Below, piece after piece: positions 1 through 19,565 of a DNA stretch of 19,963 nt. The stretch's first letter is position 1; every line of letters starts with the position of its first letter. The position numbers were made by a program, and so were the translations under genes. The stretch is taken from positions 1 through 19,963 of the forward strand of contig JAEOTX010000116.1 in the NCBI GenBank assembly GCA_016839605.1, read 5' to 3'. The notes below the pieces were generated by a model. That model was not told the origin of the DNA and searched no databases. It saw only the letters and a program-made list of their open reading frames with translations. The DNA comes from Candidatus Thorarchaeota archaeon (lineage in GTDB: Archaea > Asgardarchaeota > Thorarchaeia > Thorarchaeales > Thorarchaeaceae).

Positions 1-1
1 A

Positions 2-1561
2 GATCCCGGTACTGGCACAGGGGACCAAACTGATCCGGGATATTATCCTCCGTATATGCCGTACATCTATGTTGAGGATGTTGACAGCAATGTCTATTGG
101 ATTCAGGAGGACTATGTCTATGACTACTCCTACAACTGGTCTTTCTCCAATCTCCTTGTTGTTGTAGTCCTGGACCCAGACGCATCATACATGTCGTGGT
201 TGTCTGGAGTTAATTGGTTCGTTGAGCCTACTGCGACTGACATATGGGGCTTGATGTGGTATCCAGAACCCGTTGCACTGACAGGTGATGAGGTTTTCAT
301 CTATTCCACCTTCTATCTCTCTGAGTATAACTCGAGCTACTACTACAGTGCCAATTACACTTGGTATGATGATGACATGAATCCTGTCGATGCAAATGAT
401 GTCATTCCCAATCTCAAGGAAGAGTATTCATGGGCCGCATGGATGAATGAGTCCTACGAGTATGACTATGAGGGTTCCTTCACAAGCTATGGTTTTGACA
501 TCAGCGAGATGTTTAACGACGGCGAAACTTCTCAATGGATGGATCACTACTTCTCAGGGCTTTCTGCTTTCAATGACACCAATGGAAACGGAATCATGGA
601 CATAGTATACGATCCGATTGAGATGGACTATGATGAGGATGGCATAGTTGATTGGGTCTACTATGAGATGAACGCGACCGCGTCTGAGTTGGTCTATGAC
701 TTCTACGCGGAGTCAGCTGAACTTGGCAATGTTGTTCTGCCACAGCTAAATGATGATGAACAAATCGAATGGAGTGCTGAGGTCGTTGATATTGAGGGCA
801 ACCTCATGACTGCCTATCCTTATCCTGAGCCAATCTGGTGTTTCTGCGGTACAGACGCGCCACCTGAAGAAATAGCAGAACCAGAGACCGTTCCTACAGC
901 TGTTGACCGATTGGAGATGGTCTACCGGTTTGAAGTGACAGATAAGGCTGCGGTACTCAAAGTGGACCAGCACTTTGGTGACTTCACGAATCCAGAGACT
1001 GGAGTTATCCTACCTGAGGTAGATGGTCTCAGTTTAGCCGCAAAATACTGGAGTTCCTTCTCCAGCTACACAATCACTGGAGAACTCTATGACGGAACCG
1101 AAGTTGGTGTAGCCATGCCAGAAAGTGCACCAGCGCCCGAAGGCACGCTCAGATTCGAGGAAGTAAGAGAGCAAGAGACCGATCTTCGCACCACTATCGA
1201 ATTCGGCGGAACTTATCTCTGGGGTAAAGATGGCGGAACTTACGATGTAGGAACTGCGATTATTCCCACGTATTTCTACGCTATGCCATTCGCAGAACAG
1301 GGCGCACCTGCTGCTGACCTTGCATTTGGAGCTGACATGTGGTACATGCAGACCTACTACTATGCATCCTGCTACGCGGAGTGGGACGGACACGCCATCA
1401 CGCACGACCCAATCTTCACTGTGTTTCCACTATCAGCACCTGGTCCTATCACTTCATTAATCGGACTACTCACCAATTCTGCCATTCTGATTGGTGCGGT
1501 GGGAGTTGTAGCAATTGCAGTAGTTTGCGTTCGCGTCAACAATGAACGGAAGTCTTTCTAG
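2..1561 (+). CDS. Acidic, Tyr/Trp-rich cell-surface protein with C-terminal membrane anchor (5'-truncated)
   Basis: The frame is open from position 2 (DPGTGTGDQTDPGYYPPY-M...), so the start lies outside the window. Very D/E/Y-rich, with DxNxNG/DxDxDG Ca-binding-like motifs (DTNGNGIMD, DYDEDGIVD) and N-x-S/T sequons. An HDP motif precedes a hydrophobic C-terminal helix (SAILIGAVGVVAIAVVCV) and a short basic tail. Confidence 0.8.
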   Translation, partial: DPGTGTGDQTDPGYYPPYMPYIYVEDVDSNVYWIQEDYVYDYSYNWSFSNLLVVVVLDPDASYMSWLSGVNWFVEPTATDIWGLMWYPEPVALTGDEVFIYSTFYLSEYNSSYYYSANYTWYDDDMNPVDANDVIPNLKEEYSWAAWMNESYEYDYEGSFTSYGFDISEMFNDGETSQWMDHYFSGLSAFNDTNGNGIMDIVYDPIEMDYDEDGIVDWVYYEMNATASELVYDFYAESAELGNVVLPQLNDDEQIEWSAEVVDIEGNLMTAYPYPEPIWCFCGTDAPPEEIAEPETVPTAVDRLEMVYRFEVTDKAAVLKVDQHFGDFTNPETGVILPEVDGLSLAAKYWSSFSSYTITGELYDGTEVGVAMPESAPAPEGTLRFEEVREQETDLRTTIEFGGTYLWGKDGGTYDVGTAIIPTYFYAMPFAEQGAPAADLAFGADMWYMQTYYYASCYAEWDGHAITHDPIFTVFPLSAPGPITSLIGLLTNSAILIGAVGVVAIAVVCVRVNNERKSF

Positions 1562-1594
1562 GAGCGGGAAACCCCCGCTCCACCCTTTTTCTTT
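1561..1594 (+). terminator. GC-rich hairpin plus T-tract terminator
   Basis: GGAGCGGG-aaacc-CCCGCTCC (8-bp stem, 1561-1581) directly at the stop codon, followed by acccTTTTTcTTT. It lies between convergent genes. Confidence 0.75.
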
Positions 1595-1600
1595 GAATAC

Positions 1601-2404
1601 TCACTTTAATCTATCAAGGCAAGAATCCGCATAGATTTTTGCCTCGATTATGTTACTTGGATTTCTATGAGAAACTTCAACGGTCAGCGCTTTATCATAG
1701 CCTCCTTCATGGAGACTCTGGACCATCCTGAGAAGGTCGACTTCCCCGCATCCTGGGACTAAATATTTCCGATAGCCATTATCATCCACAAGGCTTCCGT
1801 CACTGTCTCTGAAGTGGACATTGAGGATGAGGTCCTCATAGTCCTTGATAATCTGGCTGATGTCTGTTCCATTGATATGCATGAATTCCAGATCGATAGT
1901 GACTCCCAAGGGCCTTCCACCATTCGCAGAAATCAAGTTCAAAATGAATTGGTCTACTTGATGTAGATATGGCACATTCTCAATGGTCAATATGCAGTCT
2001 GATTCTTCTGCGAGGTCAAGTAATCTGTCAAGTCGGGTCTTCCACTCATCACTCTCGTCTATCATCACTTGGTCCGGGGGATGAAAAACAGCTACCTGAA
2101 CCCCCAGACTTTGAATGAAGGGAAAGACCACGTCCGTAGATTTCTTGAAATCCTCATCATCAAAAGCAACTAGAAACTTGGGCAGATGTATTGAGTAGGG
2201 ATTGAGTCCATAGTCCTCGATTGTGTGTTGGAACGTGTGTCTGACCTTTCTAGGCCTGTCATCCATCCAGACCTCAATATTCTCGTAACCCGCGTCCTTG
2301 ATTCTCCTTAATGTTTGAATCAAATTCTGCAGCAGATTCTCGTCAGAGGAGGCTGATCGAATTCCTCCGAGAACAGAACAGGACACGAACACATCTTTCA
2401 CCAT
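1601..2404 (-). CDS. Sugar phosphate isomerase/epimerase (xylose isomerase-like/AP endonuclease 2 TIM barrel)
   Basis: Motifs GYENIEVW, VFHPP, LTIENVP, VTID, NVHFRD, PGCGEVD and LTVEV are typical of this metal-binding barrel family. Confidence 0.85.
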   Translation of the reverse strand: MVKDVFVSCSVLGGIRSASSDENLLQNLIQTLRRIKDAGYENIEVWMDDRPRKVRHTFQHTIEDYGLNPYSIHLPKFLVAFDDEDFKKSTDVVFPFIQSLGVQVAVFHPPDQVMIDESDEWKTRLDRLLDLAEESDCILTIENVPYLHQVDQFILNLISANGGRPLGVTIDLEFMHINGTDISQIIKDYEDLILNVHFRDSDGSLVDDNGYRKYLVPGCGEVDLLRMVQSLHEGGYDKALTVEVSHRNPSNIIEAKIYADSCLDRLK

Positions 2405-2524
2405 AGACGGTTGACATCCAATATTCTAGTACTAATTAGCATAGAGTTGTAGGAATTTGCTGACCATGCGGTATATATTGGAGGACTTACTAGACTAAAA
2501 TACTATCACAACTGGTGAGAGAAT

Positions 2525-2890
2525 ATGGCAAATGACGAACAGATGTTAGAAGAACTGAAGGAGATACGGAAACTCTTGACCCCGCCAGAGCCTAAACCGC
2601 CTCCGGAGGGATTCGTCAATGAATTCACAGACTTCCTGTCCAAGTACAAAGTTCTTGGGTTGGCAGTGGCTTTCATTCTTGGTCTTTACTTGGGTGCGCT
2701 CGTGCAAGCGATGGTTACAGACCTGATAATGCCACTCATAACAATCTTCATTCCCGATATTGCCTGGCAGGAACTGGCATTTGGGAATTTCCTATATGGC
2801 CATTTCATTGGTGAGCTGATAACTTTCATTATCATTGCTTTCGTTGTCTTTTTGTTGGTGAAGTTCGCATCAAAGATTGGAATTGATTAA
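2525..2890 (+). CDS. mscL: Large-conductance mechanosensitive channel MscL family protein
   Basis: S1 helix FVNEFTDFL, TM1 VLGLAVAFILG...LV...DLIMPLI, YGxFI and TM2 LITFIIIAFVVFLLVK. A GGTGA RBS lies just upstream. Confidence 0.9.
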   Translation: MANDEQMLEELKEIRKLLTPPEPKPPPEGFVNEFTDFLSKYKVLGLAVAFILGLYLGALVQAMVTDLIMPLITIFIPDIAWQELAFGNFLYGHFIGELITFIIIAFVVFLLVKFASKIGID

Positions 2891-2901
2891 CTTCACTATG
2901 A

Positions 2902-2948
2902 TCTCACCCATCTCTACTCTTCAAGGATGGGTGAGACAATTCCTTTTT
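2902..2948 (+). terminator. Hairpin plus T-tract terminator after mscL
   Basis: Perfect 11-bp inverted repeat TCTCACCCATC (2902-2912) / GATGGGTGAGA (2926-2936), followed by caattccTTTTT. Confidence 0.65.
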
Positions 2949-2986
2949 GAGGGCGATGAATACAATCTATAGCGGGAGCCAACAAG

Positions 2987-3271
2987 ATGACAAAACGATA
3001 CAATATCATAGCTAAGATATCCGAGCTCCGCAGCGAACCTTCGGGAAATCCCTGTAGTATGTACCAGCTCGGTACCGAGTTCGATCTGTCCAAGCCTGAA
3101 GAGCGAGTAAAAATCTGTAGATGGGCGTATAACTCGCTGCTACCATTCATCGCAGTGTTAGAGTTCGGTGGTGCTCTACCTTGGGAACCAGATCCTGAAC
3201 GTGCCTTTGTGGCATGTCCTGATCCCCATAATGTAGTGGTCTTCGAACTGATTCGCAAGGAAGAGGTGTAG
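2987..3271 (+). CDS. TIGR04076 family protein (small Cys-containing protein, function unknown)
   Basis: Pattern C-x2-Y-x2-G-x2-F ... ICxWAY..L.PF...L.FGG..PWE ... ACPDPxNxVVFEL.R. Confidence 0.8.
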   Translation: MTKRYNIIAKISELRSEPSGNPCSMYQLGTEFDLSKPEERVKICRWAYNSLLPFIAVLEFGGALPWEPDPERAFVACPDPHNVVVFELIRKEEV

Positions 3272-3281
3272 AGGAGGCAAG

Positions 3282-6200
3282 CTATTCCTCTTTCTTGTCT
3301 CCATTTTCGTCACTGAGAAGACTCTCTACATCATCCAAGAACTTCTCTTCATCAGAGACCTCAGTTGCAGGCTCCTCTATCTTGACCTCTAATTCGGTAG
3401 ATGGTTCCGAATCTTCAGGCGCAGGTACAACCACCAACTTCTCCGGCTCTTCTGCTGGAGGAGGCGTAGCATCGACTCTGACCTCATCAATGGATGTTAA
3501 TGCGAGATTCCCCATCTCAATGGCATCCATGATAATTGTATAGACTCGCGCTTCTTCAAGACCACATGACGTCATCTCTGTAGCAAGCTCTTCCAGGTCA
3601 AAGCCGCCTGCATCATCAATACGATGAATGCGTTCCTCGATGCACTTGGTCTTTCGTGGGAATGATTTGCCCTCTGAAACTGTGTAGTCGCGAAGGAGCC
3701 GCCCATCCATGATGTCATCAAAGAAGGCCGTAAACTGAGCCTCTGTTTCAGGTTCAATAGTCGTCAATGGCACTTCAGGATACATGTTATCGAAGACGAA
3801 TCCGATAGCCTCAGCAAACTCCACCATCCTAAGCTCCTGCCCCTTCGAGGGCGGAGTCAGAGATATGAAGGCGCAGAGCAGATTCTCAGTGGCAACAGTC
3901 CTTATGATATCTGATATTGGTGTCACCACCCAATTCTCTTGGTTAACGTTGAACTCGCTCCTGAAAGTGCTAATAGCACTCACAAATCCTGACACGAGAA
4001 GTTCATCGAGTCCTTCCTTCAACATCTTCGAATAGATGGGAATGCCTGTGTTTTTGTGAAGGACAATCACACCAAGGAGGCCCTTGACATCGTCAAAACG
4101 ACGCTTGACAACCATCGCATCTAGATAGCGCCTTCTCTGTCTTCTGATATACGCTCTGCGACCTGCAAAACCGATTGCTGCTATTCCCATGATTGCTATG
4201 TAGGGAGAGTATCGCCTGATGGTCCTGTTCAAAGCTTCAATCTCGCTGAGAATTGGTTCAAGTTCAGCCTCATAGTAATCTGATTCAATCTCGTAGTTCT
4301 CAATTGTGACGTATATTCTTACTAACGTAGTGGATTCGATACTAGGCATCTGAAATGACGCGGTATATTGGCCTGGTAGACCTTCTACCATCGGCCGAAT
4401 TTCCCCCGGTCCTATTTCACTGATTAGTTGATATTCAACAGCGGCTCCAGGAACGGGATTGCTTGTTTCGGACTCGAATAGGTGAAGAATCAGGGTGTTA
4501 TGCGCTCCCTCCACAGCAGTCAGGCCTTGGTCAATATCGATCTCGATTGCTACAGGTAGCACCTCAAGCTCAAATTCAATAAATCCGCTAACGTGGTCGG
4601 TCATATTTGCTGTGAAGAACACCTGCCACTTACCAATAGAGTCAGCTACAAATCCCAGGAAGTACAGATCCCCTACCTGTGACAAAGACACAGTCAGGCC
4701 TTCAGCAGGCAAAGTAGAGATTGATAGATCGGCCGAGCTTATGTTTTGTCCAGTATCAGTCCTAACATAAGTAAGTGTGAGGTTGTATTCATCGGTGAAA
4801 TAAGTGGAGTCTGATTCCAGCCCTCCAACTATCATTAGCTCAGTTGGAATTGATCTAACAACAAGAGTAAATCCTACCGTAGAGTTTAGGTAATTGGGTA
4901 GTGTGGCACGTATGGCAAACTCGTAGGTTCCTATAACGGAAGGTGTGAGTGTAAGTGTATATTGCCCGCCTGACACTTCAGCTACTGCATGGGCTAATCC
5001 GCTTGGAGGATGCAGCACTAGAATTGTCGCACCTACCAAGCCATTCAATGCGTCGTCTCTGAATGTAATCTGAACCATATGGCTCTGATCAACTGATATC
5101 GTCGCTCCAGAGTCGTCAATCGTCAGAATAGTGGGTATCTCTCGCACTGTGAGACCGAAAGATGCAAACTGGGTATCGTAGTCTGTGAGATTCGCTCTAA
5201 TCAGAATTGTGAAAATCCCTGATGATGCTGCTGTGATCTCAATTGAATAGAAGCCTAGTCCTTCGTTAATCGTAGCTCCGATGCCTAGTCCTGCGGCAGG
5301 GACTACGTCTATGACTGTAACATTGGCCCCGCTCAGTCCGAAGCTAGTTGTATTGGTGAACTGAACAACCAATCTATAGGTATCACCAAAATACGCGAAA
5401 TCAGCAGTCCCATTGAGCCTAATGAGATTAGAACCGCGTCCTCTCACAATTACAGTATAGCCTAGGGTAGAATTGAGATAATTAGTCATACTTGCCTTGA
5501 ACGCCATCTGATAGGTTCCAGGTGTAAGAGCAGTGATGGTCACATTGTAAAGACCGCCGGATAGTTCTGATATCTCAAATGAAAGTCCTCCCGGCGGATT
5601 CAACACACTAACAGTTGCCCCAGCTATGCCTGTAGAGCTCTCGTCTCTGAATGACAGCTCTACCGATTGGCTATCGCCCACAGACAATGTAGTACCTGCA
5701 CTGTCTGCTGTGAGTACGGTGGGGATTTCATTCACCGTTATTGTGAATGCTGTTGTTTGGGTAACATGATCCGTCAAATTTGCATTGATGAAGATAGTAT
5801 ACGTTCGAGCCGCCGATGAGGTCAGAACGATTGAGTAGTAACCATTTCCTTCATCGACGGAGAGTCCTGCAGTCAGACCTGTAGAGGGATCAATGTTTGT
5901 CACACTGACATTTGCCCCAGCAAGCCCGTAGCCTGTACTATTTCGGTACTGAACAACGAGCCTATAGGATGCTCCTAATTGTGATACATCAGAGGTACCG
6001 TTTATGGGAACCAAGACAGTGGCGAACCCTCTCACGATTATGGTATATCCTAGGGTGGAATTGAGATAATTAGTCATACTTGCCTTGATAGCTATCTGAT
6101 AAGATCCAGGTGCAAGGGGAGTGATTGTGAGATTGTAAAGACCACCGGATAACTCCGATATCCAGAATGATAGTCCAGCAGGTGGGTTCAAGACATTGAT

Positions 6201-8975
6201 AGAGGCTCCAGGTATGCCTGTAGAACTCTCATCTCGGAATGACAGCTCTACAGATTGGCTATCGCCCACAGACAATATAGTAGCTGCACTGTCTGCTGTG
6301 AGTACGGTGGGGATCTCATTCACCGTTATTGTGAATACTGCGATTCGGGTGATATGATTCGTCAAATTTGCATTGATGAAGATATTATACGTTCGAGCCG
6401 TCGATGAGGTCAGAACGATCGAGTAGTAGCCATTTCCTTCATCGACAGAGAGTCCTGCGGTCAGACCTGAGGACGGGTTGATGCTTGCCACACTGACATT
6501 TGCCCCAGCAAGACCATAGCCTGTGCCATTTTGGTACTGAACAACCAGTCTATATGGTACCCCTAGCTGACCTATGTCAGATGTACCATTTGTAGAAACC
6601 AAGACGGTGTCTACCTCTCCAACTATGAGTGTGAAGGAGTCTGAATTGCTATAGTGGAATGCTTTCGAGGCTGTAATGATTACTGTATAAGTTCCTGACT
6701 TCGAGCTTGTGATATTGATTGAATAATCTCCTGGACCCGTACTGCTCTGCCCAAGTAGCTGGAGACCACCCTGCGGACCTGTATAGTTCATCTGGATTGT
6801 GGCTCCACTGATCCCAAGACTAGACTCCAATTCATAGCGCATTTCTACCGCAAACTCTTCGTAGAGTCCCACTTCAGTAGGCAGGGGTCCAACCGAGGTC
6901 AATTGGAAATTGGTGCGAAGTGTTGACACTATTGTGAATTGGCAAGTCACATCATCATAGTATGGCCTTGAGGCATTCACGACTACTACAAACTGACCAG
7001 CACCTACAAGAGATGTGTCAAAGTCTGCCTGCCACCAATTATGTATTGGATTGGCCAGGCAGTTTATGATCATCATTGACCAGTTCGCAACCACCGATGC
7101 GGATGCGTCCAGGATGAAATCGGTCGTATCATCATCTACATAGTAGAGCATATTTGTGATCAGCAGTCCTGTATCAGTTTCCACCAATGTCTCTCGAGGC
7201 GTGAGGCTTGCAGTGTGATACATATCGAATACTGCGTAATCATAAGCAATCTCTGTACCATTTGTCCATAATGCAATGACTTCCCACTGACCTGCGGAAG
7301 TATTTGCTCCACCCAATATCCAATGAGAGCTATTGACAATTCCATTATTCATGGCACTGATGGAATCATAAGCCCATGTTGTTGAATTAGGAAGTATCCA
7401 TGTTATGTTGACTGGACTACCATCTGTGGGATTGCCTGCAGCAGCACCAATCTCAATCTGAGCCCTAGTGGTATTGCCTGGTCTAAATAGAGAATTCTCG
7501 GACCATTGTTCTGTGCTTTCGTTCTGTACTTGAATTGATACATTCTGCGCATAGTTTGGAGATTGGAGGTCAATCTCCCACCACCCACTTCGGCTCATCT
7601 CGCTATTGGGTACATGGATGCGGCCAGGAGAAATCGTGCAGTTATCTGTGATGTCAATGGTGAGTGGATCTAAAACGGTAGCATTCTCCCAGTCATTAGG
7701 ATACAGCAAGTCCACTGTAACACCATCATACTCTATTGATGGGGTCATATATGTGAAAAACGCCAAGTCCGAACTTTGTCCTGCAGTTACAGAATATTGA
7801 ACACCTTGTTCCGAAAGGTCCGTTGTCCATGATGAATTGATAATGCGATGATAGAGAGAAGTGACAGTATAGGAAAAGATGACACTGGTATTTGATGTGA
7901 CCTCAACTTGCAGCGGATCTACAGTCCAAAAGCTTGGATTTGTAATAGATGCTGTTCCTGCACCTGATATAGGTGTAGAGAATGCTCCCGCATGGAATGT
8001 TAGTTCGGCTGACTGTGGAGTCGGAGTTGCGACACTCGTGAATACAATGTTATCCAATTGCACTGTGATATTTTGTACGTTTTCCATCCCATCATGCTCT
8101 CTGAGGGGGTCATCATCATAGTCTGTATTATTGAAGACTTCAATATCTCCGACAGCAATATACAATCCTAGATAGATCGAAAACGTGCTCCATGCTGATG
8201 GAATGGTAAAATCGTGTGATATGCTGACCCAAGCATCATGCGAGCTCAATGTATGCATTGGATAGTACCATCCATCACTCTCTAGTTGCCAGAACACACC
8301 AACGTCCCCTCCCAGCGAATCATTGTTTTGTGGATCAAGTGGACCCGTAGCGTAGCGGAAATCGAATTCCAACTTGAAATCAAGCGTGGATGGTGTATTA
8401 TTTATCACCTGCTCAAATGCAACCTCCGTTCCCCAACTATGAATGTAAGATGTGCCACGACTAGGATGGTAGTTATACTCCCCCATGTTCCTACATTCAA
8501 CATACTTTCCAGTGGAATTGAATGAAGCAATCTGTGTATTCGAACCTCCATCAATACTATAATTGGTCCACGGATCCGTTCCATAATCGAATGTGCCGTT
8601 GATCCCATATAATCTCTGGAGATCCCACACATCAATGCTAGTGGAATTCATAAACCAGCCATTTGTGTCATCAATTGTGATATCGCTTACAGTGTTCGAA
8701 CCAGTGTCCGTTCTCCCTCGCTTTCCATCTGTTGTCTGATACCCTGATTGCCGAATTCTGATAGGATCAAGCACCCCACTACTGGGCTCTGCGGATATGG
8801 TGAAAGCCTTACTCTGAACCGAATCTCCGTCTTGTAGTGTTTGATCTGATTGTGAAGCGAATGGGAGATCATTATTCGATTCTGGTGTTGAGATGACTCC
8901 CGGAGTGGAAGTTCCAATAAGACCTATCATGAGCATAGCAAAGAGCCCTATGACTGCGTGCTTACCTACTTTCAT
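3282..8975 (-). CDS. Giant single-pass surface glycoprotein: signal peptide, Ig-like repeat stalk, TM helix, cytoplasmic longin-like domain (~1897 aa)
   Basis: The probable start is ATG 8975 (MKVGKHAVIGLFAMLMIGLIG, signal-peptide-like); the ORF extends to 9038. The ectodomain is S/T/G/N-rich and beta-strand-like with many sequons and ~100-aa repeats. TM YIAIMGIAAIGFAG is followed by RRAYIRRQRRR (positive-inside). The cytoplasmic part has GVIVLHKNTGIPIYSK...LVSGFVSAISTF and an acidic tail. Confidence 0.85.
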   Translation of the reverse strand: MKVGKHAVIGLFAMLMIGLIGTSTPGVISTPESNNDLPFASQSDQTLQDGDSVQSKAFTISAEPSSGVLDPIRIRQSGYQTTDGKRGRTDTGSNTVSDITIDDTNGWFMNSTSIDVWDLQRLYGINGTFDYGTDPWTNYSIDGGSNTQIASFNSTGKYVECRNMGEYNYHPSRGTSYIHSWGTEVAFEQVINNTPSTLDFKLEFDFRYATGPLDPQNNDSLGGDVGVFWQLESDGWYYPMHTLSSHDAWVSISHDFTIPSAWSTFSIYLGLYIAVGDIEVFNNTDYDDDPLREHDGMENVQNITVQLDNIVFTSVATPTPQSAELTFHAGAFSTPISGAGTASITNPSFWTVDPLQVEVTSNTSVIFSYTVTSLYHRIINSSWTTDLSEQGVQYSVTAGQSSDLAFFTYMTPSIEYDGVTVDLLYPNDWENATVLDPLTIDITDNCTISPGRIHVPNSEMSRSGWWEIDLQSPNYAQNVSIQVQNESTEQWSENSLFRPGNTTRAQIEIGAAAGNPTDGSPVNITWILPNSTTWAYDSISAMNNGIVNSSHWILGGANTSAGQWEVIALWTNGTEIAYDYAVFDMYHTASLTPRETLVETDTGLLITNMLYYVDDDTTDFILDASASVVANWSMMIINCLANPIHNWWQADFDTSLVGAGQFVVVVNASRPYYDDVTCQFTIVSTLRTNFQLTSVGPLPTEVGLYEEFAVEMRYELESSLGISGATIQMNYTGPQGGLQLLGQSSTGPGDYSINITSSKSGTYTVIITASKAFHYSNSDSFTLIVGEVDTVLVSTNGTSDIGQLGVPYRLVVQYQNGTGYGLAGANVSVASINPSSGLTAGLSVDEGNGYYSIVLTSSTARTYNIFINANLTNHITRIAVFTITVNEIPTVLTADSAATILSVGDSQSVELSFRDESSTGIPGASINVLNPPAGLSFWISELSGGLYNLTITPLAPGSYQIAIKASMTNYLNSTLGYTIIVRGFATVLVPINGTSDVSQLGASYRLVVQYRNSTGYGLAGANVSVTNIDPSTGLTAGLSVDEGNGYYSIVLTSSAARTYTIFINANLTDHVTQTTAFTITVNEIPTVLTADSAGTTLSVGDSQSVELSFRDESSTGIAGATVSVLNPPGGLSFEISELSGGLYNVTITALTPGTYQMAFKASMTNYLNSTLGYTVIVRGRGSNLIRLNGTADFAYFGDTYRLVVQFTNTTSFGLSGANVTVIDVVPAAGLGIGATINEGLGFYSIEITAASSGIFTILIRANLTDYDTQFASFGLTVREIPTILTIDDSGATISVDQSHMVQITFRDDALNGLVGATILVLHPPSGLAHAVAEVSGGQYTLTLTPSVIGTYEFAIRATLPNYLNSTVGFTLVVRSIPTELMIVGGLESDSTYFTDEYNLTLTYVRTDTGQNISSADLSISTLPAEGLTVSLSQVGDLYFLGFVADSIGKWQVFFTANMTDHVSGFIEFELEVLPVAIEIDIDQGLTAVEGAHNTLILHLFESETSNPVPGAAVEYQLISEIGPGEIRPMVEGLPGQYTASFQMPSIESTTLVRIYVTIENYEIESDYYEAELEPILSEIEALNRTIRRYSPYIAIMGIAAIGFAGRRAYIRRQRRRYLDAMVVKRRFDDVKGLLGVIVLHKNTGIPIYSKMLKEGLDELLVSGFVSAISTFRSEFNVNQENWVVTPISDIIRTVATENLLCAFISLTPPSKGQELRMVEFAEAIGFVFDNMYPEVPLTTIEPETEAQFTAFFDDIMDGRLLRDYTVSEGKSFPRKTKCIEERIHRIDDAGGFDLEELATEMTSCGLEEARVYTIIMDAIEMGNLALTSIDEVRVDATPPPAEEPEKLVVVPAPEDSEPSTELEVKIEEPATEVSDEEKFLDDVESLLSDENGDKKEE
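4843..6606 (-). repeat. Three intragenic tandem repeats with 588-nt (196-aa) period, each made of two Ig-like domains
   Basis: Matching anchors are exactly 588 nt apart: ctgtctgctgtg at 5701/6289, accaagac at 6010/6598, and gtgggNat at 5131/5719. A 30-nt exact run occurs at 5471/6059. The copy nearest the membrane is more diverged. Confidence 0.9.
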
Positions 8976-9051
8976 CAAGTTCGCCTCGAGAGAGTGGATT
9001 CGACTTGCTCGTTGAGCTAGTCTAAGAAGACTATACACACAGAAGGATGCA

Positions 9052-10236
9052 TCACTTCGATCCTGATATTGGCACCAACCGTGTGTTCACAAAGTCTTCC
9101 AACTCTCTCGCTCGCTCTGAAATTATATTATCATACTTAGCATGGACTTTCTGAAATAACCTGTAACTAATTCGGTATTCCTTTCCATTTTTCTCAAGTT
9201 CCCAACGGCCTACCACTTCGCCATCAATCCAGATTGTAGGTCTAATCTCACCTGACACGTTTGTCGCACCTGTCACCTTCGCATCTGGCGAGGGAGGGAT
9301 ACAATCTGGGGGCCAATAATGCTTCCTTAATTTTGGAAAGACACGTGCTTTCATCTCGTCATCTAGATACCATGAACGGTCAATGAATGCCTTTGGCAAG
9401 TGATCCTCATAGGGGAGAAACCATACAAGTGAATCCGTCGGACTCTCAAGGGAAGAAGCACGGTCAAAGTCACTTGAGGTCATCAGCTTGGTCTTCCCAG
9501 CCATGTCAATCTGTACAGTGTCTTCCCCGAATGTTTCAACAGCGGCCTTTGTTCGAGTTTTTGTTGTGGGGAGCCACCAAGATATATCATCGATAGACAC
9601 TGGACCAAATCGTTCGATATACTTGAGAATGACTTGGTCGAGGGCATCATCCTCAGAAGTATCATCCAAATGGAATCCTTTGACCCATTTCTCTAGAAGT
9701 GCATATGCTGTAGTTGAATTTCGTGCATGACTAGCAGTAGCGCGAATCACTTTGCCGGATGTTGCCGCTAGATGAAACAGAGGCCGTATCTGTCTGGCAT
9801 GTTCAGGGACCAGTTTCTTGATCTCTCGCATCGTTTTCGGACCGTTCTCTAGCGTTGCGAGGATGGACTCCTTCAATGATTCGATTTCTTGGTCACTGAG
9901 GTGTCTGATATCTGGATGCTGCCGCATCTTCTTGTAGAATGAAACTCTGGTGGCATGAATCACCGTTGAAAGATTGTCAATATGCACGACATGGACCGTT
10001 CCCCTGAAGGCATTGAGCCTTAACAGACGGTCACCAGTGTTCAAAGACTTGAATACTGCTTCTGCATCGTAGTCTCCTATCCTTGCCCAGACTGAGAGAT
10101 ATGGGGTCCAATAGTCAGTTGAGTGAAGGCCCAACTGAGTCTTGGCAATTTCATAGAAGTCAGGTCGCTTCTTGTCAAATGCATGCTGCTTTCTCAGGTG
10201 ATTCAGACGGACCTGTTCCACAGTCAATTCCTTCAA
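9052..10236 (-). CDS. AlkZ/YcaQ-like (HTH_42, winged-helix) DNA glycosylase family protein
   Basis: GLHSTDYWTPYLSVWARI, RGTVHVV, YIERFGPVSIDDISWW, FLPYED and PTIWIDGEVVGRW are all typical HTH_42 motifs. TTG start. Confidence 0.85.
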   Translation of the reverse strand: MKELTVEQVRLNHLRKQHAFDKKRPDFYEIAKTQLGLHSTDYWTPYLSVWARIGDYDAEAVFKSLNTGDRLLRLNAFRGTVHVVHIDNLSTVIHATRVSFYKKMRQHPDIRHLSDQEIESLKESILATLENGPKTMREIKKLVPEHARQIRPLFHLAATSGKVIRATASHARNSTTAYALLEKWVKGFHLDDTSEDDALDQVILKYIERFGPVSIDDISWWLPTTKTRTKAAVETFGEDTVQIDMAGKTKLMTSSDFDRASSLESPTDSLVWFLPYEDHLPKAFIDRSWYLDDEMKARVFPKLRKHYWPPDCIPPSPDAKVTGATNVSGEIRPTIWIDGEVVGRWELEKNGKEYRISYRLFQKVHAKYDNIISERARELEDFVNTRLVPISGSK

Positions 10237-10352
10237 AGAAATAACCCCTTGAGTTCTTGCTGTCCTTACAACATATGAATTAGACTGCGAATATCAAAGC
10301 AAAATGAGATATGAATTAATCAAGAAATCCTCTACTTCTATAGCCTAAGACA

Positions 10353-10407
10353 CCCGTTTACGGCAAATCCACTCGTAAACGGGGCGGCCTGATTTTGCCG
10401 AGTAAAC
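10353..10407. repeat. Overlapping inverted repeats (GTTTAC/GTAAAC) just after the stop of the 77-aa gene
   Basis: CCCGTTTACG (10353-10362) / CGTAAACGGG (10374-10383) is a perfect 10-bp pair. The same left arm GTTTAC-GGCAAA-TC also pairs with GATTTTGCC-GA-GTAAAC (10391-10407). Confidence 0.7.
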
Positions 10408-10408
10408 T

Positions 10409-10642
10409 CTACCTTGCAGCGCCGATGATTAGAAGCAGAACACCTAGCACTATAAGTATCAACATAATCTCTGTGAAGAGATATCCTGCAAGCTCAATCG
10501 AGTAGAGATTAAGCATAGTGAATAGGTCAGTTATCACTGGTAAACTGATCCCAGCTAGTCCTAGGATAATTGGTAGAAGCCCGAAGATTATCAGGATTAA
10601 TCCAAGAAGTGCCATTCCTTTACCCATGAGTTTCATCTCCAT
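10409..10642 (-). CDS. Small two-helix membrane protein, hypothetical
   Basis: Two long hydrophobic stretches. A TTTATA box lies 28 nt upstream on the minus strand. The start Met is ambiguous. Confidence 0.7.
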   Translation of the reverse strand: MEMKLMGKGMALLGLILIIFGLLPIILGLAGISLPVITDLFTMLNLYSIELAGYLFTEIMLILIVLGVLLLIIGAAR

Positions 10643-10669
10643 GTGGATACTCTTCCTTTGTACTGCCGC

Positions 10670-10675
10670 TATAAA
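10670..10675 (-). promoter_or_regulatory. TATA box (TTTATA) for the 77-aa membrane protein gene
   Basis: Matches the archaeal TATA consensus at appropriate spacing from ATG 10642. Confidence 0.5.
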
Positions 10676-10734
10676 TAGATATGTAGGCTTTGGAAGGGAA
10701 TTCTGAATGCATATCTAAGCTATACATTCATGCA

Positions 10735-11187
10735 CTATTCAAGACCTGTGATTGTGATTGGACCCTTTGCGTCAGAGTAGCCTCTTACCTCTACAATTCT
10801 AGCTCCAATGCCTCCCGCAGCACCACTCAAAAACCAGATCTGATAGATGGCGGAAACGTAAGTCATGTTGGTTAATGGGCTCCAGCCCAGGCTAACTCCA
10901 AGGCTACTCCAAACAAGCATATCCACGGCTGAAGTAAGAATCATGAAAATGATTCCCGCTGACATGCCTTTGACTAAAGCGCACATTTGGAATCTGAGGC
11001 TGCACCCACCGCCAACAAGATTCCTGTAGGTTATTGGAATTATGACAAGTGGGACTCCAATGAGATATACGCCCCAATAGTACGGATCCCCTACTAATAT
11101 CGTGACAATCAGGAGAGAAACATACAAGGGAATCCAGTATTTTGGAATCCATAACCAAGACTTGATCTCTTCAAATGCCTCCAACAT
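10735..11187 (-). CDS. Hypothetical integral membrane protein (~4 TM helices)
   Basis: 150-aa ORF with four hydrophobic segments and a GGGCSLRFQMCAL loop. It fills the gap between neighbouring features. Confidence 0.75.
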   Translation of the reverse strand: MLEAFEEIKSWLWIPKYWIPLYVSLLIVTILVGDPYYWGVYLIGVPLVIIPITYRNLVGGGCSLRFQMCALVKGMSAGIIFMILTSAVDMLVWSSLGVSLGWSPLTNMTYVSAIYQIWFLSGAAGGIGARIVEVRGYSDAKGPITITGLE

Positions 11188-11307
11188 GAATCACTGAGTC
11201 TATGGGGTTGATTTTTCCTTAATCATATCTTGGGTTGCTACCAGCTGCACCAGACTTGGACAGAGCTGGACACTTATTAGATGGCTGTTTGAGATAATTT
11301 GAACGGG

Positions 11308-11315
11308 CTTATATG
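11308..11315 (+). promoter_or_regulatory. Putative TATA box (cTTATATg) upstream of the candidate ncRNA
   Basis: TTATAT at 11309-11314 is preceded by purine-rich gaacggg, about 25 nt before the first helix of the structured region. No + strand ORF follows. Confidence 0.45.
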
Positions 11316-11337
11316 CTTCGAGCCATCAACACTAATC

Positions 11338-11645
11338 TGAGGCAGACCTGACACCAAAGAGGCCTCACAGAGTCGCCCCAGTGCCGTTTCTGGGAGCACT
11401 TCACTCTGGTGTCCAAGATTGTGCAACTTACAATGAACGGTGTGGCAATTCATGAACGAGTAAAACAGCAACGTCAAAAGGTGCCGTGTCATAGACGGGG
11501 GTGACCTAATCCACGGTTCTAAAGGAGAGTCCTTTAATCCGGAATCAGAAGGAGGAAGATTTCGGAATCGTGATAATAATGCGCCTTTCTGTTATCAGGA
11601 CCGTCTTTGAACCGTGGACGGTCACGCCTATACCATTGGTCTATT
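11338..11645 (+). ncRNA. Candidate ~300-nt structured non-coding RNA of unknown family
   Basis: Hand-found helices: TGAGGC/GCCTCA, GACACCA/TGGTGTC, GAGT/ACTC, CCCAG/CTGGG, ATTGT/ACAAT, GTGACC/GGTCAC, TCCACGGTTC/GAACCGTGGA, TAAAGGA/TCCTTTA, TCCGGAATC/GATTTCGGA and TGATAATA/TGTTATCA. The wobble pairs are G-U on the + strand. It occupies the only large non-coding gap. The ends are approximate. Confidence 0.6.
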
Positions 11646-11660
11646 CCTAAAAAAGGAGGA
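11645..11660 (-). terminator. Oligo-T terminator for the histidine phosphatase gene
   Basis: The minus strand reads tcctccTTTTTTagga about 35 nt after the stop codon at 11688. Confidence 0.4.
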
Positions 11661-11687
11661 ATATCTGCGCATTTTATTGCCTTGGTT

Positions 11688-12392
11688 TCAAACCTTCATA
11701 TTCTCTGCAGTTCGTGCATCAAATACAAATACTTGGTTCTTGATCAATGATAATCCGAACCCTCCGAGATAGGGGGGTCTCTGATCATCGCGTGCTTCCT
11801 CTTTCATAAACGTCTTTCTTGCGCCCATCAGGAACAAATCATGAGTCACAAGGATGTGCATCAAACCTGGTTCTGATGCTCTGAGTATGTCCACTGTTCC
11901 GTTTGTGACTCTATTAGTGAATTCTTCAAACGGCTCAATTCCATCGCCTAACTCTCCCCTTCCCCAAGAAGTTACAAAGCTAGCAACTCCAACGCCATCG
12001 TCACCGACTTTCTCCCAGAGCTGTGTGTCAGTGACAATAGGTCCCAACAGCAAGAATAATGGTTTCACAGATTGCACATTGCCGCCATTCTGTCTGATTC
12101 CCTCAGCGATTTCTTCGGCAGTCTGTTTGCACCTTGGAATCGGGCTATGAAAAATCCTTACGGATCTGCTGGTCGGGAGTCTTCGACCGAATTCTCCTGC
12201 CATGGCTTCACCCAAAGACGTGATGCCGGTTTGAGACATCTCATCCAGACTGCGGATTGCTACTCGGTGCGAATGACGAACAAGTAGCATGAGTGGCCCT
12301 TTCTCTGCAATCGAGTTGGACCAAGCAGTTAGATTCCTTGCGTCTACAAGCCAGTCTTGAGTGTCCCATTCATCCAAATTGCTTGTCAACAT
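11688..12392 (-). CDS. Histidine phosphatase (phosphoglycerate mutase-like) family protein
   Basis: LLVRHS (RHG-type motif), IT..GE..A, HSPIPRCKQTA and ILVTHD. Confidence 0.88.
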   Translation of the reverse strand: MLTSNLDEWDTQDWLVDARNLTAWSNSIAEKGPLMLLVRHSHRVAIRSLDEMSQTGITSLGEAMAGEFGRRLPTSRSVRIFHSPIPRCKQTAEEIAEGIRQNGGNVQSVKPLFLLLGPIVTDTQLWEKVGDDGVGVASFVTSWGRGELGDGIEPFEEFTNRVTNGTVDILRASEPGLMHILVTHDLFLMGARKTFMKEEARDDQRPPYLGGFGLSLIKNQVFVFDARTAENMKV

Positions 12393-12472
12393 GATTCGTC
12401 CTGATTCAATGAGTCCGTTCTATTCGTTCATATTTTGCTTATGCTATCCATATAACTAGTTACTGCCCCTCT

Positions 12473-13213
12473 TCATGGAAATTTCTCAAGAAGAGCTTTG
12501 ATATGATTGATAACCAACAGGTCTGGTGGCGCGTTCTTGGCTTCATCTGGGCGATTCCAAGTGATTAGAATTGGGAGCATTTGAGCCTTACGCGCTGCCT
12601 CAACATCTAGTTCTATAAAATCCCCAATAAATGCACATCTCATTGGGTTGATACCCATGTGCCTGGCTATCTTGAGAAGCATATACGGTGATGGTTTCTT
12701 GTATCCTGGAACCATTGAGTGTTCCACAGTGACAAAGAGATCCAGAATTGAGTCTCTCTTGAGAATCCCCGAAGGGTCCTCCCAACGATTTGAGGCCAGC
12801 CCAAGCTTATATTCCCTTGAATGAAGCTCTTCCAGTACTTCCTTGCATTCAGGAATGAGAGCGGACTGCCACGGAATCACTGTTGCCTCCCATTTCTCAG
12901 TTATCTCGTTAGCCAATCTATCAAGATCCTTATTCACTCCGAGAGAACTGAGAAGTTTTTTTCCATACTCCACCCATAGTTCATGAGACGGGCTCCATCT
13001 TGATGGGACACCTTCTGCAATCATGAACTCGTTCAACCATGTTCTTGCGGCTTGATACGCCAGTCCTAGTTCTTGATCCGAACAATTCGCCAATTCGTCA
13101 AGCCTCATTTCTTTGAGCCATATACGAGTCAATTTAGAAACCCAAACATCAGAACGATAAAGGGTGTCATCAAGGTCAAAGATGATACCTTTGATCATGT
13201 CAAGAGACGTCAT
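12473..13213 (-). CDS. HAD-superfamily hydrolase (subfamily IA)
   Basis: Motif I IIFDLDDTL, motif II LASN, motif III KP, motif IV FIGD...DVEAA. The likely start is ATG 13213 or 13198; the ORF extends to 13258. Confidence 0.9.
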   Translation of the reverse strand: MTSLDMIKGIIFDLDDTLYRSDVWVSKLTRIWLKEMRLDELANCSDQELGLAYQAARTWLNEFMIAEGVPSRWSPSHELWVEYGKKLLSSLGVNKDLDRLANEITEKWEATVIPWQSALIPECKEVLEELHSREYKLGLASNRWEDPSGILKRDSILDLFVTVEHSMVPGYKKPSPYMLLKIARHMGINPMRCAFIGDFIELDVEAARKAQMLPILITWNRPDEAKNAPPDLLVINHIKALLEKFP

Positions 13214-13345
13214 CGCATGTGAATCGGGACCTAGCTGCCTAATCAACGTTCTCTGCAATCAGGAGCATCACAGATAATCTGACGATGCTATGAGACAACT
13301 CTTCTTGTGAGCTTTTATAGTCGAGAGGCATCCAATTTCCTGCCG

Positions 13346-14263
13346 GTGATTAACTTGGACCTGATAGACAAAGGCATTCTGTCTGATTTGCTGAATAATT
13401 GCAGAATTACATATGAGGACCTGTCCCGAAGGCACGGGATTTCTGCAAATGCAGTCAAGAAAAGGGTCCTGAAATTAGAAGAGTCAGGTGTTATCGATCA
13501 CTACTCCATTCGATTATCCCTCGCAATGTTGGATGCTCAGTATCTATTTGGCCTACTTCAGACAGACGGGTCCCAGGACGAAGAGGTCTTTGTTAACAAA
13601 ATAGGCGATAGTCCTTCAATTGTTGCTGCAGCTGCATATAGTGATGGTCATTACGCTCTAGTTGCAGAATATATCAGCACAGTGGAGTTGATGGAACTGG
13701 GCACGTATTTGAGGACCCTTGATGGAGTGGAGGATGTCGAACTCCATACACTGGTATCAAAGAGAGGAGCAAAGACGGATTTGAGCACTAATCACCTCAA
13801 GGCCCTTTACTATCTTCGAGATAATCCTAGAATCAGTATTGTCGACCTCGCCCGAGAGAGCGGCATGACTGCGAGACGTGTGAGGCGCCTAGTCACAGAG
13901 CTTGTTGAAGGTGACAGCGTCTTTTTCACTGCCAATTTGGAGCTTGGAGAAGCGGGGAGTATTCCTTTTCTGGCAAGAGTAGCATGGAATGAGCGGAATA
14001 CAGAATACGAATCTGTCATCGAATGGCTCATGAGTAAATATCCTGACTCACTATGGGAGTGGTATATTTCTGTTTCAGAACCTGTTATCTTCTGTCTATT
14101 CACGGCTGAAGACCTGAACGAGATGAATTCTAAGGCGAGGGAGATACGCCAGCAGGACTTTGTTGATCGCGTAAAGGTGATAGTATCGTCCTATCATGAT
14201 GGCTTTGGGGGTCCGAGAAGCCGCCGATTGGATGAGCTGATTCAAGAGGTCCTCAAGAAATAG
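13346..14263 (+). CDS. Tandem (double) Lrp/AsnC-family transcriptional regulator
   Basis: Two AsnC-type wHTH units (LDLIDKGILSDLLNNCRITYEDLSRRHGISANAVKKRVLKLEESGVI and LKALYYLRDNPRISIVDLARESGMTARRVRRLV), each followed by a RAM-like domain. Likely GTG start at 13346; the ORF begins at 13307. Confidence 0.88.
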   Translation: MINLDLIDKGILSDLLNNCRITYEDLSRRHGISANAVKKRVLKLEESGVIDHYSIRLSLAMLDAQYLFGLLQTDGSQDEEVFVNKIGDSPSIVAAAAYSDGHYALVAEYISTVELMELGTYLRTLDGVEDVELHTLVSKRGAKTDLSTNHLKALYYLRDNPRISIVDLARESGMTARRVRRLVTELVEGDSVFFTANLELGEAGSIPFLARVAWNERNTEYESVIEWLMSKYPDSLWEWYISVSEPVIFCLFTAEDLNEMNSKAREIRQQDFVDRVKVIVSSYHDGFGGPRSRRLDELIQEVLKK

Positions 14264-16128: not shown

Positions 16129-16254
16129 GAACTCACCTGAAACCCCTGAACATACATGGGCTAATAAGAGGCTTAGGGTGCATTTCTTCAACCATTGCGC
16201 TGGTAGGTTATCTTATCTTCACCTAGCTTGAGGATGAAGAATTCTGCTCTGCTT

Positions 16255-17253: not shown

Positions 17254-17485
17254 ATCAAGTCCTCCTGTTCAGAGAACGAACTTAACTATCTTAAAGTTAT
17301 TGTTGAAGCCGCTCGCTTATCGTATTTCAGGCCCCACAGTCTTGTGCTTGTCTTGGCCTACATCTACTTGTAGCCCTATCAGAGGAGAGGTTGAACTCTC
17401 CTTGACACCTCTTTTTCTATCAAAGAGCAAGCTTGAAAGCAGCATCCAAGCTAACTCTGTACGAGCTCAGATTTGGGTGGACAAT

Positions 17486-17701
17486 ATGACTTGCTATTTT
17501 CGACATATCACACGCGTCTTTGAGGAGATAGGCATAGAGGTCACTAAAGAGAATAAACGTGCTATTGATCAGATGATTCACGAGTTAGTTGGTGTGGAAT
17601 ACAAGGACTGTTCTACTGCTTGGAAGAAAGTAAAGAAGAGGCTTGCAGAAAACGAAGATGGTTTTATCGCCAACCTTGGAGCAAGAATCGCAAAGATGTA
17701 A
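17486..17701 (+). CDS. Small hypothetical protein (71 aa, MTCYFRH...)
   Basis: ATG 17486 is preceded by GGTGG. The helical, charged sequence has two Cys and two His. The upstream part of the 196-aa ORF overlaps the AKR gene and is unlikely to be coding. Confidence 0.75.
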   Translation: MTCYFRHITRVFEEIGIEVTKENKRAIDQMIHELVGVEYKDCSTAWKKVKKRLAENEDGFIANLGARIAKM

Positions 17702-17752
17702 ATCATTGCATATCCGACACAGTGATATCATACAACCTACTCACAAAGCATC

Positions 17753-18787: not shown

Positions 18788-18862
18788 CGAGGTTTTGTTG
18801 TTTCTCTGCGTTGAGGTAAGGGTTGATAGGCGCGAGACCCCCGAAACCCTCGGTGCTAATCA

Positions 18863-19561: not shown

Positions 19562-19565
19562 AGGC

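Follow-up and report, generated by a model that had tools for sequence, protein, structure and literature searches.

The question raised by the window, a 19,963-nucleotide stretch of DNA from a Candidatus Thorarchaeota archaeon (GenBank assembly GCA_016839605.1, contig JAEOTX010000116.1, positions 1 to 19,963), is whether its longest gene encodes a surface receptor whose cytoplasmic end belongs to the machinery of small GTPases. This had been proposed in an earlier sequence-only reading, in which a giant ectodomain was coupled through one transmembrane (TM) helix to a Mon1/Fuz-type longin domain, a winged-helix-like segment and an acidic Pro-rich tail. The analysis described below indicates that the gene is real, intact and conserved, and that it encodes a single-pass, probably glycosylated surface protein with a longin domain, a winged-helix-like domain and a disordered, motif-bearing cytoplasmic end. 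In full, the product is very likely a type-I single-pass, probably N-glycosylated Thorarchaeota surface protein, with a large head on an immunoglobulin (Ig)-like stalk outside and a juxtamembrane helix, longin domain, winged-helix-like domain and disordered acidic tail with a conserved motif inside the cell.

The longest open reading frame (ORF) in the window (3282..9038 (-), 1918 aa) opens with a GTG at 9038. In 9/9 relatives the N-terminus is a Met followed by a basic stretch and then a hydrophobic segment, and close orthologues open with M[KR]xGKHAVIGL, which corresponds to residue 22 of the window ORF. Because orthologue N-termini begin at this Met, the real start was placed at ATG 8975, giving a gene at 3282..8975 (-) with its stop codon at 3282-3284 and a product of approximately 1897 aa; residue numbers used here are those of the 1918-aa ORF. 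The stretch was present in DNA metagenome contigs only, with no RNA dataset among those listed. The receptor-like single-pass layout that had been claimed is borne out by the ORF, by the TM stretch and by a layout common to relatives, and each of the elements quoted for it was located: one TM helix, YIAIMGIAAIGFAG (residues 1613-1626, 4161..4202 (-)), then an Arg-rich juxtamembrane segment (RRAYIRRQRRRY...VKRRFDD, 4083..4160 (-)), the string LLGVIVLHKNTG...LDELLVSGFVSAISTF at residues 1654-1692 (4079-3963), the string FDLEELATEMTS...AIEMGNL at residues 1813-1845 (3602-3504), and a final 68 residues (3285..3488 (-)) containing 25 Asp/Glu and 8 Pro.

Orientation in the membrane was assessed from glycosylation sequons and flanking charge. 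In the 1565-aa part between the two hydrophobic segments of the protein there are 45 N-x-S/T sequons, compared with 19.2 ± 4.0 in composition-matched shuffles, whereas the 292-aa C-terminal part has none (0.9 expected); sequon density in the ectodomain part of the genome's four paralogues is 2.2-2.8 per 100 aa. Three Lys/Arg residues are found in the 15 residues before the TM helix and seven in the 15 after it. Since both sequon distribution and positive charge point the same way, the data indicate a type-I topology with a glycosylated exterior and a cytoplasmic C-terminus, the sequon count being the strongest topology indicator, and, as had been supposed, the module is placed inside the cell rather than outside it. 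At 14-17 residues the second hydrophobic stretch is short, and it lies below a Kyte-Doolittle mean of 1.6 over 19 residues, a value exceeded only in the N-terminal signal-like segment. The latter, a signal peptide or signal anchor (MKVGKHAVIGLFAMLMIGLIGTS..., 8889..8975 (-)), is kept in orthologues and may be cleaved.

To define the fold of the cytoplasmic part, residues 1627-1862 (236 aa) were modelled with AlphaFold2 from a 48-sequence alignment (A1), giving a mean predicted local distance difference test (pLDDT) value of 90.4 and a predicted template modelling score (pTM) of 0.85. Secondary structure assigned by DSSP was H2-26, E28-35, E41-46, H53-70, E79-81, E86-90, E94-100, H106-126 and H137-150, and this order of elements, H-E-E-H-E-E-E-H-H, is that of a longin domain (beta-beta-alpha-beta-beta-beta-alpha-alpha) with an extra N-terminal helix as in roadblock. 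The extra helix (model residues 2-26, pLDDT ~95) corresponds to the juxtamembrane segment, in which KxRFDD is conserved in the consensus of a domain-only tail alignment (A2); the longin-fold domain occupies residues 1653-1782 (3693..4082 (-)), the region best conserved among relatives; and the last 12 residues of the model, at the start of the acidic tail, are of low confidence (pLDDT ~60).

Structural searches with this model, in which entries were classed as longin/roadblock-type by their titles, gave a uniform result. All listed Foldseek matches in the PDB were of this type (COPI, AP sigma, Sec22b, LC7 roadblock, Fuzzy, LAMTOR, MglB and Mon1-Ccz1), with probabilities of ~1.00 for many and modest E-values (one at 8.1e-4, others 3e-3 to 1e-2). 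VIA-align was run against 48,161 chains and the best 50 rows were examined; all 50 were longin/roadblock-type, 39 chains reached Z ≥ 8, and rows 1-24 were longin-type at Z 9.1-11.1 with a root-mean-square deviation (rmsd) of 2.4-3.7 Å and, for most, 107-131 residues aligned, mostly over model residues 27-156. The highest rows included Sec22 (3egd_C, Z 11.1, rmsd 2.9 Å, 119 aligned), AP-3 sigma (7p3x_S, Z 11.0, rmsd 2.4 Å, 113 aligned), VAMP7 (Z 10.5), synbindin (Z 10.4), a Lokiarchaeota longin domain (8yqg_B, Z 10.2, rmsd 3.5 Å, 131 aligned), sedlin (Z 10.0), SRX (Z 9.7), Fuzzy in a CPLANE entry (7q3d_C, Z 9.7), Lst4 (Z 9.6) and AP2 sigma with a dileucine peptide (2jkr_I, Z 9.1). Lower scores were obtained with Asgard Roadblock3 (9jue_D, Z 9.0), MglB (3t1r_A, Z 8.7), Mon1-Ccz1 entries (Z 7.7-8.3), the GATOR1/SEA-complex entries 8fw5_C and 8adl_S (Z 7.6-7.8) and LAMTOR entries (Z ~7.5); for chains of complex entries the subunits named are in part those that we take them to be. 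The modelling thus strongly supports a longin fold for the first 130 residues of the cytoplasmic module, and in this respect the sequence-only reading, for which a non-longin model would have been fatal, was upheld.

A HMMER pass over 1.84 billion cluster representatives detected the approximately 205-aa module in 142 proteins, 83 of them at E ≤ 1e-30. Of 104 representatives whose N-side is complete and which have 60 or more residues upstream, 103 show a hydrophobic 15-mer within 70 residues before the domain, and 120 residues or fewer follow the domain in 121/121 whose C-side is complete. Because the module recurs in all these representatives with the same TM segment before it and short end after it, the pattern is not a product of chance. 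At least 1000 aa are present in 64/142 representatives, and most of the shorter ones are taken to be pieces from short contigs. Where the source gives a name it is mostly 'hypothetical protein', with two instances of 'carboxypeptidase-like regulatory domain-containing protein'; the hosts are mostly Candidatus Thorarchaeota, with Hermodarchaeota, Sifarchaeia and Promethearchaeota also represented. The genome from which the window derives (3.08 Mb, 80% complete) holds five copies (contigs C41, C241, C67, C204 and C4), which are homologous over their full length. Their ectodomains are 28-35% identical and their tails 31-47%; C204 and C4 stand out as near-duplicates or strain variants that are 83-87% identical.

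At E ≤ 1e-5 the domain profile matched 327/400 genomes of the phylum and 82/85 of the window's own family. The best 150 places listed all fell within that family, often in tandem arrays (e.g. three copies in 12 kb, G329:C1). In five genomes of five other families 25/28 matches lay in ORFs of at least 660 aa, and at 15 distant loci a gene of 737-1991 aa was found in each case with the domain near its C-terminus. These profile matches indicate that the layout is phylum-wide and that the close form with the winged-helix part is mainly that of Thorarchaeota. In the relatives P0147 and P0149 the ectodomain is 40-52% identical and the acidic tail 32-43%, compared with 78-89% for the longin domain and 82-85% for the winged-helix part, so that, by sequence comparison, no other part of the protein is as well conserved as the cytoplasmic module. 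Some distant members (at loci L065, L066, L067, L068 and L071) continue for ~170-300 residues beyond the matched longin region (e.g. a 1400-aa protein with the domain at 972-1186) and may hold further cytoplasmic domains.

The more specific label, 'Mon1/Fuz-type', fared less well. No Pfam family was matched by the tail at E ≤ 1, Fuz_longin_1 included, and no NCBIfam family; a lone NCBIfam row for DNA polymerase III epsilon (E 0.0027) scored 17 bits against a cut-off of 236 and was taken as chance. When 19 tail sequences were searched singly against Pfam, 0/19 matched any longin model, PF19036 or PF03259, and the six unrelated families that appeared did so with one member each at E ≥ 0.11. A PDB profile search with the domain-only alignment A2 had a best E-value of 0.19 and returned no relative. 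Weak matches to the tail profile in the window's own genome led instead to soluble proteins, namely C38:967-1869 and, more weakly, proteins on C57 (2-1231), C156 (24505-25713) and C218. The first of these (C38:967-1869 (-), 301 aa) has a longin domain and then two winged helix-turn-helix (wHTH) domains, with Pfam matches to TrmB (E 2e-6), Longin (E 0.0036), HTH_NPRL3 (E 0.0065) and Fuz_longin_1 (E 0.044). The soluble family to which it belongs (aligned as A4) had 246 matches, nearly all Thorarchaeota proteins of approximately 300 aa, many with precomputed PF19036 and PF16221 matches, and in the ESM Atlas these soluble longin plus wHTH proteins are the next neighbours of the tail.

Comparison of A2 with A4 by hhalign gave a probability of 98.2% (E 4.5e-14, 95 columns), the alignment extending from strand 1 to helix 2 and pairing the G-x-P-[IV]-[YF] hairpin and the S-G-F-x-[ST]-A-I-[ST]-x-F helix. 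When 25 members of A4 were compared with Pfam, 13 matched Fuz_longin_1 (best E 6.6e-6), seven Longin, five Intu_longin_1, two HTH_NPRL3 (weakly) and one Robl_LC7, and wHTH domains were represented by TrmB in 21/25 and HTH_47 in 17/25. There is therefore a transitive link through the soluble family to the first longin domain of Mon1, Fuzzy and HPS1 (PF19036), with which the tail also shares its fold. However, those guanine nucleotide exchange factor (GEF) subunits have three longin domains whereas the tail has one, followed by a winged-helix-like domain of ~70 aa and a variable tail; they act in nucleotide exchange on a Rab as heterodimers with a subunit of Ccz1, Inturned or HPS4 type; and the fold ranking places SNARE, adaptor and TRAPP longins (Z 10-11) above Fuzzy (9.7) and Mon1/Ccz1 (7.7-8.3). 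A PF19036 search of the genome that holds the window matched C38 and C171 alone, at E 0.02. The motif resemblance noted by the sequence-only reading thus reflects a real distant homology to eukaryote-like longin domains in general, and does not establish membership of the tri-longin GEF subunits.

Liu et al. (bioRxiv 10.1101/2020.10.19.343400) describe an 'NPRL2-like' longin family as occurring 'in most Thor MAGs', and the soluble family probably corresponds to it, although HTH_NPRL3 was matched, weakly, by only two of 25 members. A search with an NPR2 model gave no match in the window's own genome or in control genomes and was hence uninformative. The tail model has a longin domain and then a winged-helix-like one, the order known from NPRL2/NPRL3, and the tail has no Pfam match to NPR2, NPR3 or HTH_NPRL3. 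The soluble proteins share with the tail a homologous longin core, winged-helix-type domains after it and the same host lineage, but differ from the giant protein in having two clear wHTH domains (TrmB, HTH_47) and neither TM helix nor ectodomain. Two further observations concern this soluble group. A 682-aa tetratricopeptide repeat (TPR) protein (C218:26003-28048, locus L019) carries the hairpin and the SGFISAISSF longin signature in its C-terminal ~130 residues (profile E 7.7e-7), a sequence match indicating that the domain also rides on soluble scaffold proteins. At C38:49-1869 (L056) a co-directional ParA/MinD-type P-loop ATPase gene (49-813, -) lies 154 bp past the soluble longin plus double-wHTH gene, and a TackOD1-domain protein is encoded 2.7 kb upstream.

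The winged-helix-like subdomain of the tail (residues 1783-1850, 3489..3692 (-)) was treated separately because the longin matches cover model residues 27-156 only. Modelling of residues 1776-1862 alone from 29 sequences (A3) produced three helices with short flanking strands at pLDDT 73 and pTM 0.57. With VIA-align ten chains reached Z ≥ 5 and none Z ≥ 8, the highest-ranking being winged helices of the type that recognises ribosomally synthesised and post-translationally modified peptides, known as RiPP recognition elements (RREs; 7ly4_A at Z 7.0, TbtB, MibB and NisB), with classical winged helices also listed (the MCM C-terminus 2m45 at Z 5.5, rmsd 2.4 Å and 57 aligned, MCM8, SAMD1, SelB, APC2 and cullin). 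Foldseek returned nothing for this subdomain at E ≤ 1e-3. The earlier description of this ~70-aa segment as winged-helix-like is therefore fair on the model, many of whose listed matches are winged helices or RREs, but it is weakly supported, the best Z being 7.0.

Beyond the winged-helix part, tail length ranges from 6 to 114 residues. When 19 tails of 32-112 residues from the subclade that includes the window gene were aligned, a single block reached ≥80% conservation, F-x-x-[DE]-[VI]-E-x-L-L, present in the window protein as FLDDVESLL (residues 1900-1908, 3315..3341 (-)) within the stretch EEKFLDDVESLLSDE. A strict form of the motif, [DE][VIL][DE]x[LM][LIMV], occurs in 18/219 tails, all in one subclade, compared with 1.9 ± 1.3 in shuffles, a count that overstates independence as the carriers are related; the loose form [DE]xxxL[LIMV] is not enriched (20/219 compared with 24.9 ± 4.5). 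What matters in the motif is, on this sequence evidence, its conservation inside an otherwise freely drifting region. Because other subfamilies end in motifs of their own (PFIDR, DFAEFF and DLPxGPVxM), the terminal motifs would seem to be docking sites specific to each subfamily. FLDDVESLL also fits the acidic dileucine consensus [DE]xxxL[LI] of eukaryotes, a likeness of pattern only. In eukaryotes such signals are recognised by the sigma subunit of adaptor complexes, itself of longin fold, and we know of no archaeal adaptor that would read a dileucine-like motif. The likeness to eukaryotic type-I receptors bearing such signals, namely a single-pass glycoprotein with a cytoplasmic D-V-E-S-L-L, is again one of pattern and holds for one subclade.

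What the tail does was considered in the light of known longin systems. The reading that we favour, although its probability falls a little short of even, is that the longin tail serves as a membrane-fixed docking platform for a small GTPase or for a soluble longin/roadblock partner. On this proposal the longin module, fixed at the membrane, would hold a soluble partner beneath the surface protein; the partner would most likely be one of the small GTPases of the genome, or a soluble longin/roadblock protein pairing with the tail; contacts made outside by the ectodomain would be linked to where the cytoplasmic switch sits or acts; and the tail motif might provide a second docking site. GTPase docking on longin/roadblock pairs is established for TRAPP, Mon1-Ccz1, MglB and Ragulator, as summarised by Tran et al. 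(2024; PMC10933270). Ragulator/LAMTOR and MglB have a related fold (Z 7.5-9.0, below the longin rows), form a platform at the membrane and share with the tail a helix before strand 1; Ragulator, however, is held by the lipid anchor of LAMTOR1 and the tail by the TM helix of a surface protein, and the tail has the two C-terminal helices of a longin domain and no Robl_LC7 (PF03259) match. In keeping with the remark in the sequence-only reading that Asgard archaea encode many of them, the genome is rich in small GTPases, with 28 Ras-family and eight Roadblock matches, the candidates being unlinked to the giant genes.

Several results weigh against this proposal. Among 124 genes within 6 kb of the 15 distant members there was none with a Ras, Arf, Roc, Roadblock or Longin match at E ≤ 1e-5, the only GTPases being MeaB and an MMR_HSR1 fragment, so the claimed link to a small GTPase draws no support from gene neighbourhood. 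Twenty loci from the window's own family showed no recurring co-directional neighbour; the commonest neighbour cluster (7/20 loci) was convergent in 7/7 and directly downstream amid shared genes in six, and since it is convergent and embedded among further shared genes it reflects orthologous synteny. The neighbours in the window itself are housekeeping or unrelated genes (MscL, a xylose-isomerase-like TIM barrel, an AlkZ-like glycosylase, a haloacid dehalogenase (HAD) hydrolase, ketol-acid reductoisomerase (KARI) and others). Searches by sequence in Pfam, NCBIfam and the PDB did not connect the tail with any family whose role in GTPase biology is known, and by fold it comes closest to longins of SNAREs and adaptors rather than to those of GEF subunits. 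Longin domains also serve in SNARE regulation, in adaptor cores and in SRX; the fold alone does not give function. Prediction of a homodimer of the 236-aa tail scored 0.02 (mark 0.42), which says nothing about pairing either way. That the candidate genes are unlinked agrees with published remarks that most GTPase, roadblock and longin genes of Asgard archaea lie outside operons (PMC10933270).

Three genes were considered as partners and rejected. A Ras-domain gene ~2.2 kb from the C67 paralogue was taken as chance, given 28 such genes in 3.08 Mb and five paralogues. A 377-aa leucine-rich repeat (LRR) gene follows both the C204 and C4 copies (C204:1535-2668, L023, and C4:4037-5170; LRR_8 E 3.7e-13), directly downstream and co-directional, the two being ~90% identical by eye; with these loci 83-87% identical duplicates or strain variants, the association represents one event. 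A double-wHTH gene in the window (13307-14263 (+), 318 aa, with HTH_24/AsnC-type and MarR domains) lies 4.3 kb from the giant gene, but has seven paralogues elsewhere, none beside the other four giant genes, and its position is probably chance. In L063 and L064, too, a family member has a comparable double-wHTH gene (~315 aa) nearby, at 3.7 and 5.8 kb, and the paralogue at C250:5352-6239 (-) has one in-frame TAG inside the match and may be a pseudogene or a sequencing error.

An alternative that dispenses with GTPases is outside-in gene regulation, in which the tethered longin domain pairs with that of a soluble longin plus double-wHTH protein (TrmB/HTH_47-like) and holds or releases it, by analogy with anti-sigma factors bound to the membrane or with systems that sequester a transcription factor. 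Such soluble proteins of ~300 aa are precisely the closest relatives that could be detected for the tail longin, most of the members compared carry TrmB- or HTH_47-type domains, and the window's own genome has genes of this kind. Longin/roadblock domains commonly pair with a like domain. The NPRL2-like longin is also reported to be fused to two-component signalling domains in Asgard archaea (bioRxiv 10.1101/2020.10.19.343400). The soluble gene is, however, unlinked to all five giant genes and adjoins the ParA/MinD-like ATPase gene, and DNA binding by its winged helices is presumed from sequence whereas those of eukaryotic NPRL2/3 bind proteins, not DNA; we consider gene regulation an unlikely role.

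Similarly unlikely in our estimation is a role in sorting or envelope organisation, in which the tail, through its motif and tail-tail contacts, would serve to position the surface protein, to cluster it or to keep it in place (e.g. on protrusions or in a sub-membrane lattice), with neither switch nor signal. Such a role would fit the presence of a single conserved block in variable tails and of distinct terminal motifs in other subfamilies, the multi-copy and often tandem arrangement of the family, and the fact that paralogy covers whole proteins, head and tail together. Against it, a folded module of 200 aa that is better conserved than the ectodomain exceeds the needs of a simple anchor, the motif is confined to one subclade (18/219 tails), and to our knowledge no archaeal sorting machinery reads such motifs. 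Cultured Lokiarchaeia lack an ordered S-layer and have 'complex surface proteins', which Rodrigues-Oliveira et al. (PMC9834061) report on Lokiarchaeum without naming them, and this too would accommodate a sorting role.

A bolder extension of the docking proposal, which we regard as quite improbable, is a receptor or cargo system built from trafficking parts, in which the membrane-fixed longin platform recruits or regulates an Asgard small GTPase and FLDDVESLL is read by a longin-fold protein, either the tail itself in cis or trans or a soluble relative. Were this true, it would prefigure both membrane-tethered GTPase platforms (Ragulator, TRAPP and Mon1-Ccz1) and the recognition of dileucine cargo by adaptor sigma subunits. 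Eukaryotic longins in general (Sec22b/VAMP7/Ykt6, the AP sigma subunits and mu N-termini, zeta- and delta-COP, TRAPP sedlin and synbindin, and SRX) have the same fold and element order and are the best structural matches of the tail, but are without detectable sequence similarity to it. In longin SNAREs the longin domain is N-terminal and is followed by the SNARE motif and a C-terminal TM segment, whereas the Asgard protein has the reverse order of ectodomain, TM helix and longin domain, with an extra juxtamembrane helix before strand 1, a 1600-aa ectodomain and no coiled-coil SNARE segment.

A link to actin, with the longin/roadblock-like module tying the surface protein to lokiactin filaments or their regulators, appears very unlikely. 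An actin gene (L072:8586-9623 (+), Pfam Actin, E 9.6e-115) lies ~1 kb downstream of one distant member and a gelsolin-repeat gene (L074:2528-3391 (+)) ~4 kb from another, and profilin, roadblock and longin share a core fold (PMC10933270), but these loose adjacencies, two in 15 loci and neither in an operon, may be chance and there is no profilin entry in the best 50 VIA-align rows. That modelling has produced a spurious longin fold, or that the C-terminal module is extracellular, is scarcely credible, since the missing Pfam or PDB sequence match and the short, sub-threshold TM stretch are outweighed by the confident 48-sequence model, the uniformly longin/roadblock-type structural matches, the sequon and charge asymmetry and the hydrophobic segment of 103/104 relatives.

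As far as literature searches show, Asgard longin-domain proteins are known and their fusion to a surface-receptor layout is undescribed. Full-text searches retrieved no account of a TM or surface-protein-linked longin domain in Asgard archaea within the text they cover; in Tran et al. (PMC10933270) the words 'transmembrane' and 'winged' are absent, and the main text of Liu et al. (bioRxiv 10.1101/2020.10.19.343400) is without 'transmembrane', 'membrane protein' and 'Ig-like', its figures and supplements being parts that may bear on the point. The eukaryote-like repertoire of Asgard archaea includes longin/roadblock domains and small GTPases, and the family described here bears on how such proteins may be attached to membranes where organelles are lacking. 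It joins a longin domain covalently to the cell surface, in multiple copies and across the phylum. Should a GTPase or a soluble longin protein prove to dock on the tail, this would be a concrete surface-to-cytoplasm coupling built from trafficking parts; should the tail serve only for anchoring or sorting, it would still mark out a large and so far unnamed group of envelope proteins in Asgard archaea, and the family may in either case account for some of the 'complex surface proteins' on cultured Asgard cells.

The ectodomain (residues 47-1611, 4206..8900 (-)) is sequon-rich and has weak Pfam matches to CarboxypepD_reg (E 3.2e-8), Big_1 (E 3e-6, below cut-off) and MG2. When residues 812-1003, a unit of 192 aa, served as blastp query against the protein, full copies were returned at 1008-1199 (82% identical) and 1205-1395 (48%), the three ~192-aa double-module repeats lying at 6605-6030, 6017-5442 and 5426-4854 on the reverse strand. 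Half-shifted copies of the unit with 26-29% identity span approximately residues 729 to 1535, from which a stalk of ~8 Ig-like modules of ~98 aa was deduced (4434..6854 (-)). The Big_1 and CarboxypepD_reg matches are consistent with this, and the profile of the A1 alignment including the stalk matches intimin/invasin Ig domains in the PDB over stalk columns only. Self-comparison of the whole protein by blastp gave the identity match only, the repeats emerging when one unit served as query, and no tandem repeats were seen in the gene at the DNA level, the repeats being visible only in the protein. For residues 47-700 there is no domain assignment.

Among the remaining genes of the window, those at 14242-16191 (-) (649 aa) and 10735-11187 (-) (150 aa) matched no Pfam family at E ≤ 1e-3. 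The ORF at 2-1561 (+) encodes the C-terminal 519 aa of a large protein that runs off the start of the window; it is rich in Tyr, Trp, Asp and Glu, matches no Pfam family, lacks a longin tail and ends in a hydrophobic helix, LIGAVGVVAIAVVCV, followed by the short basic tail RVNNERKSF. Judging by these features its product is probably a second surface protein, anchored at its C-terminus.

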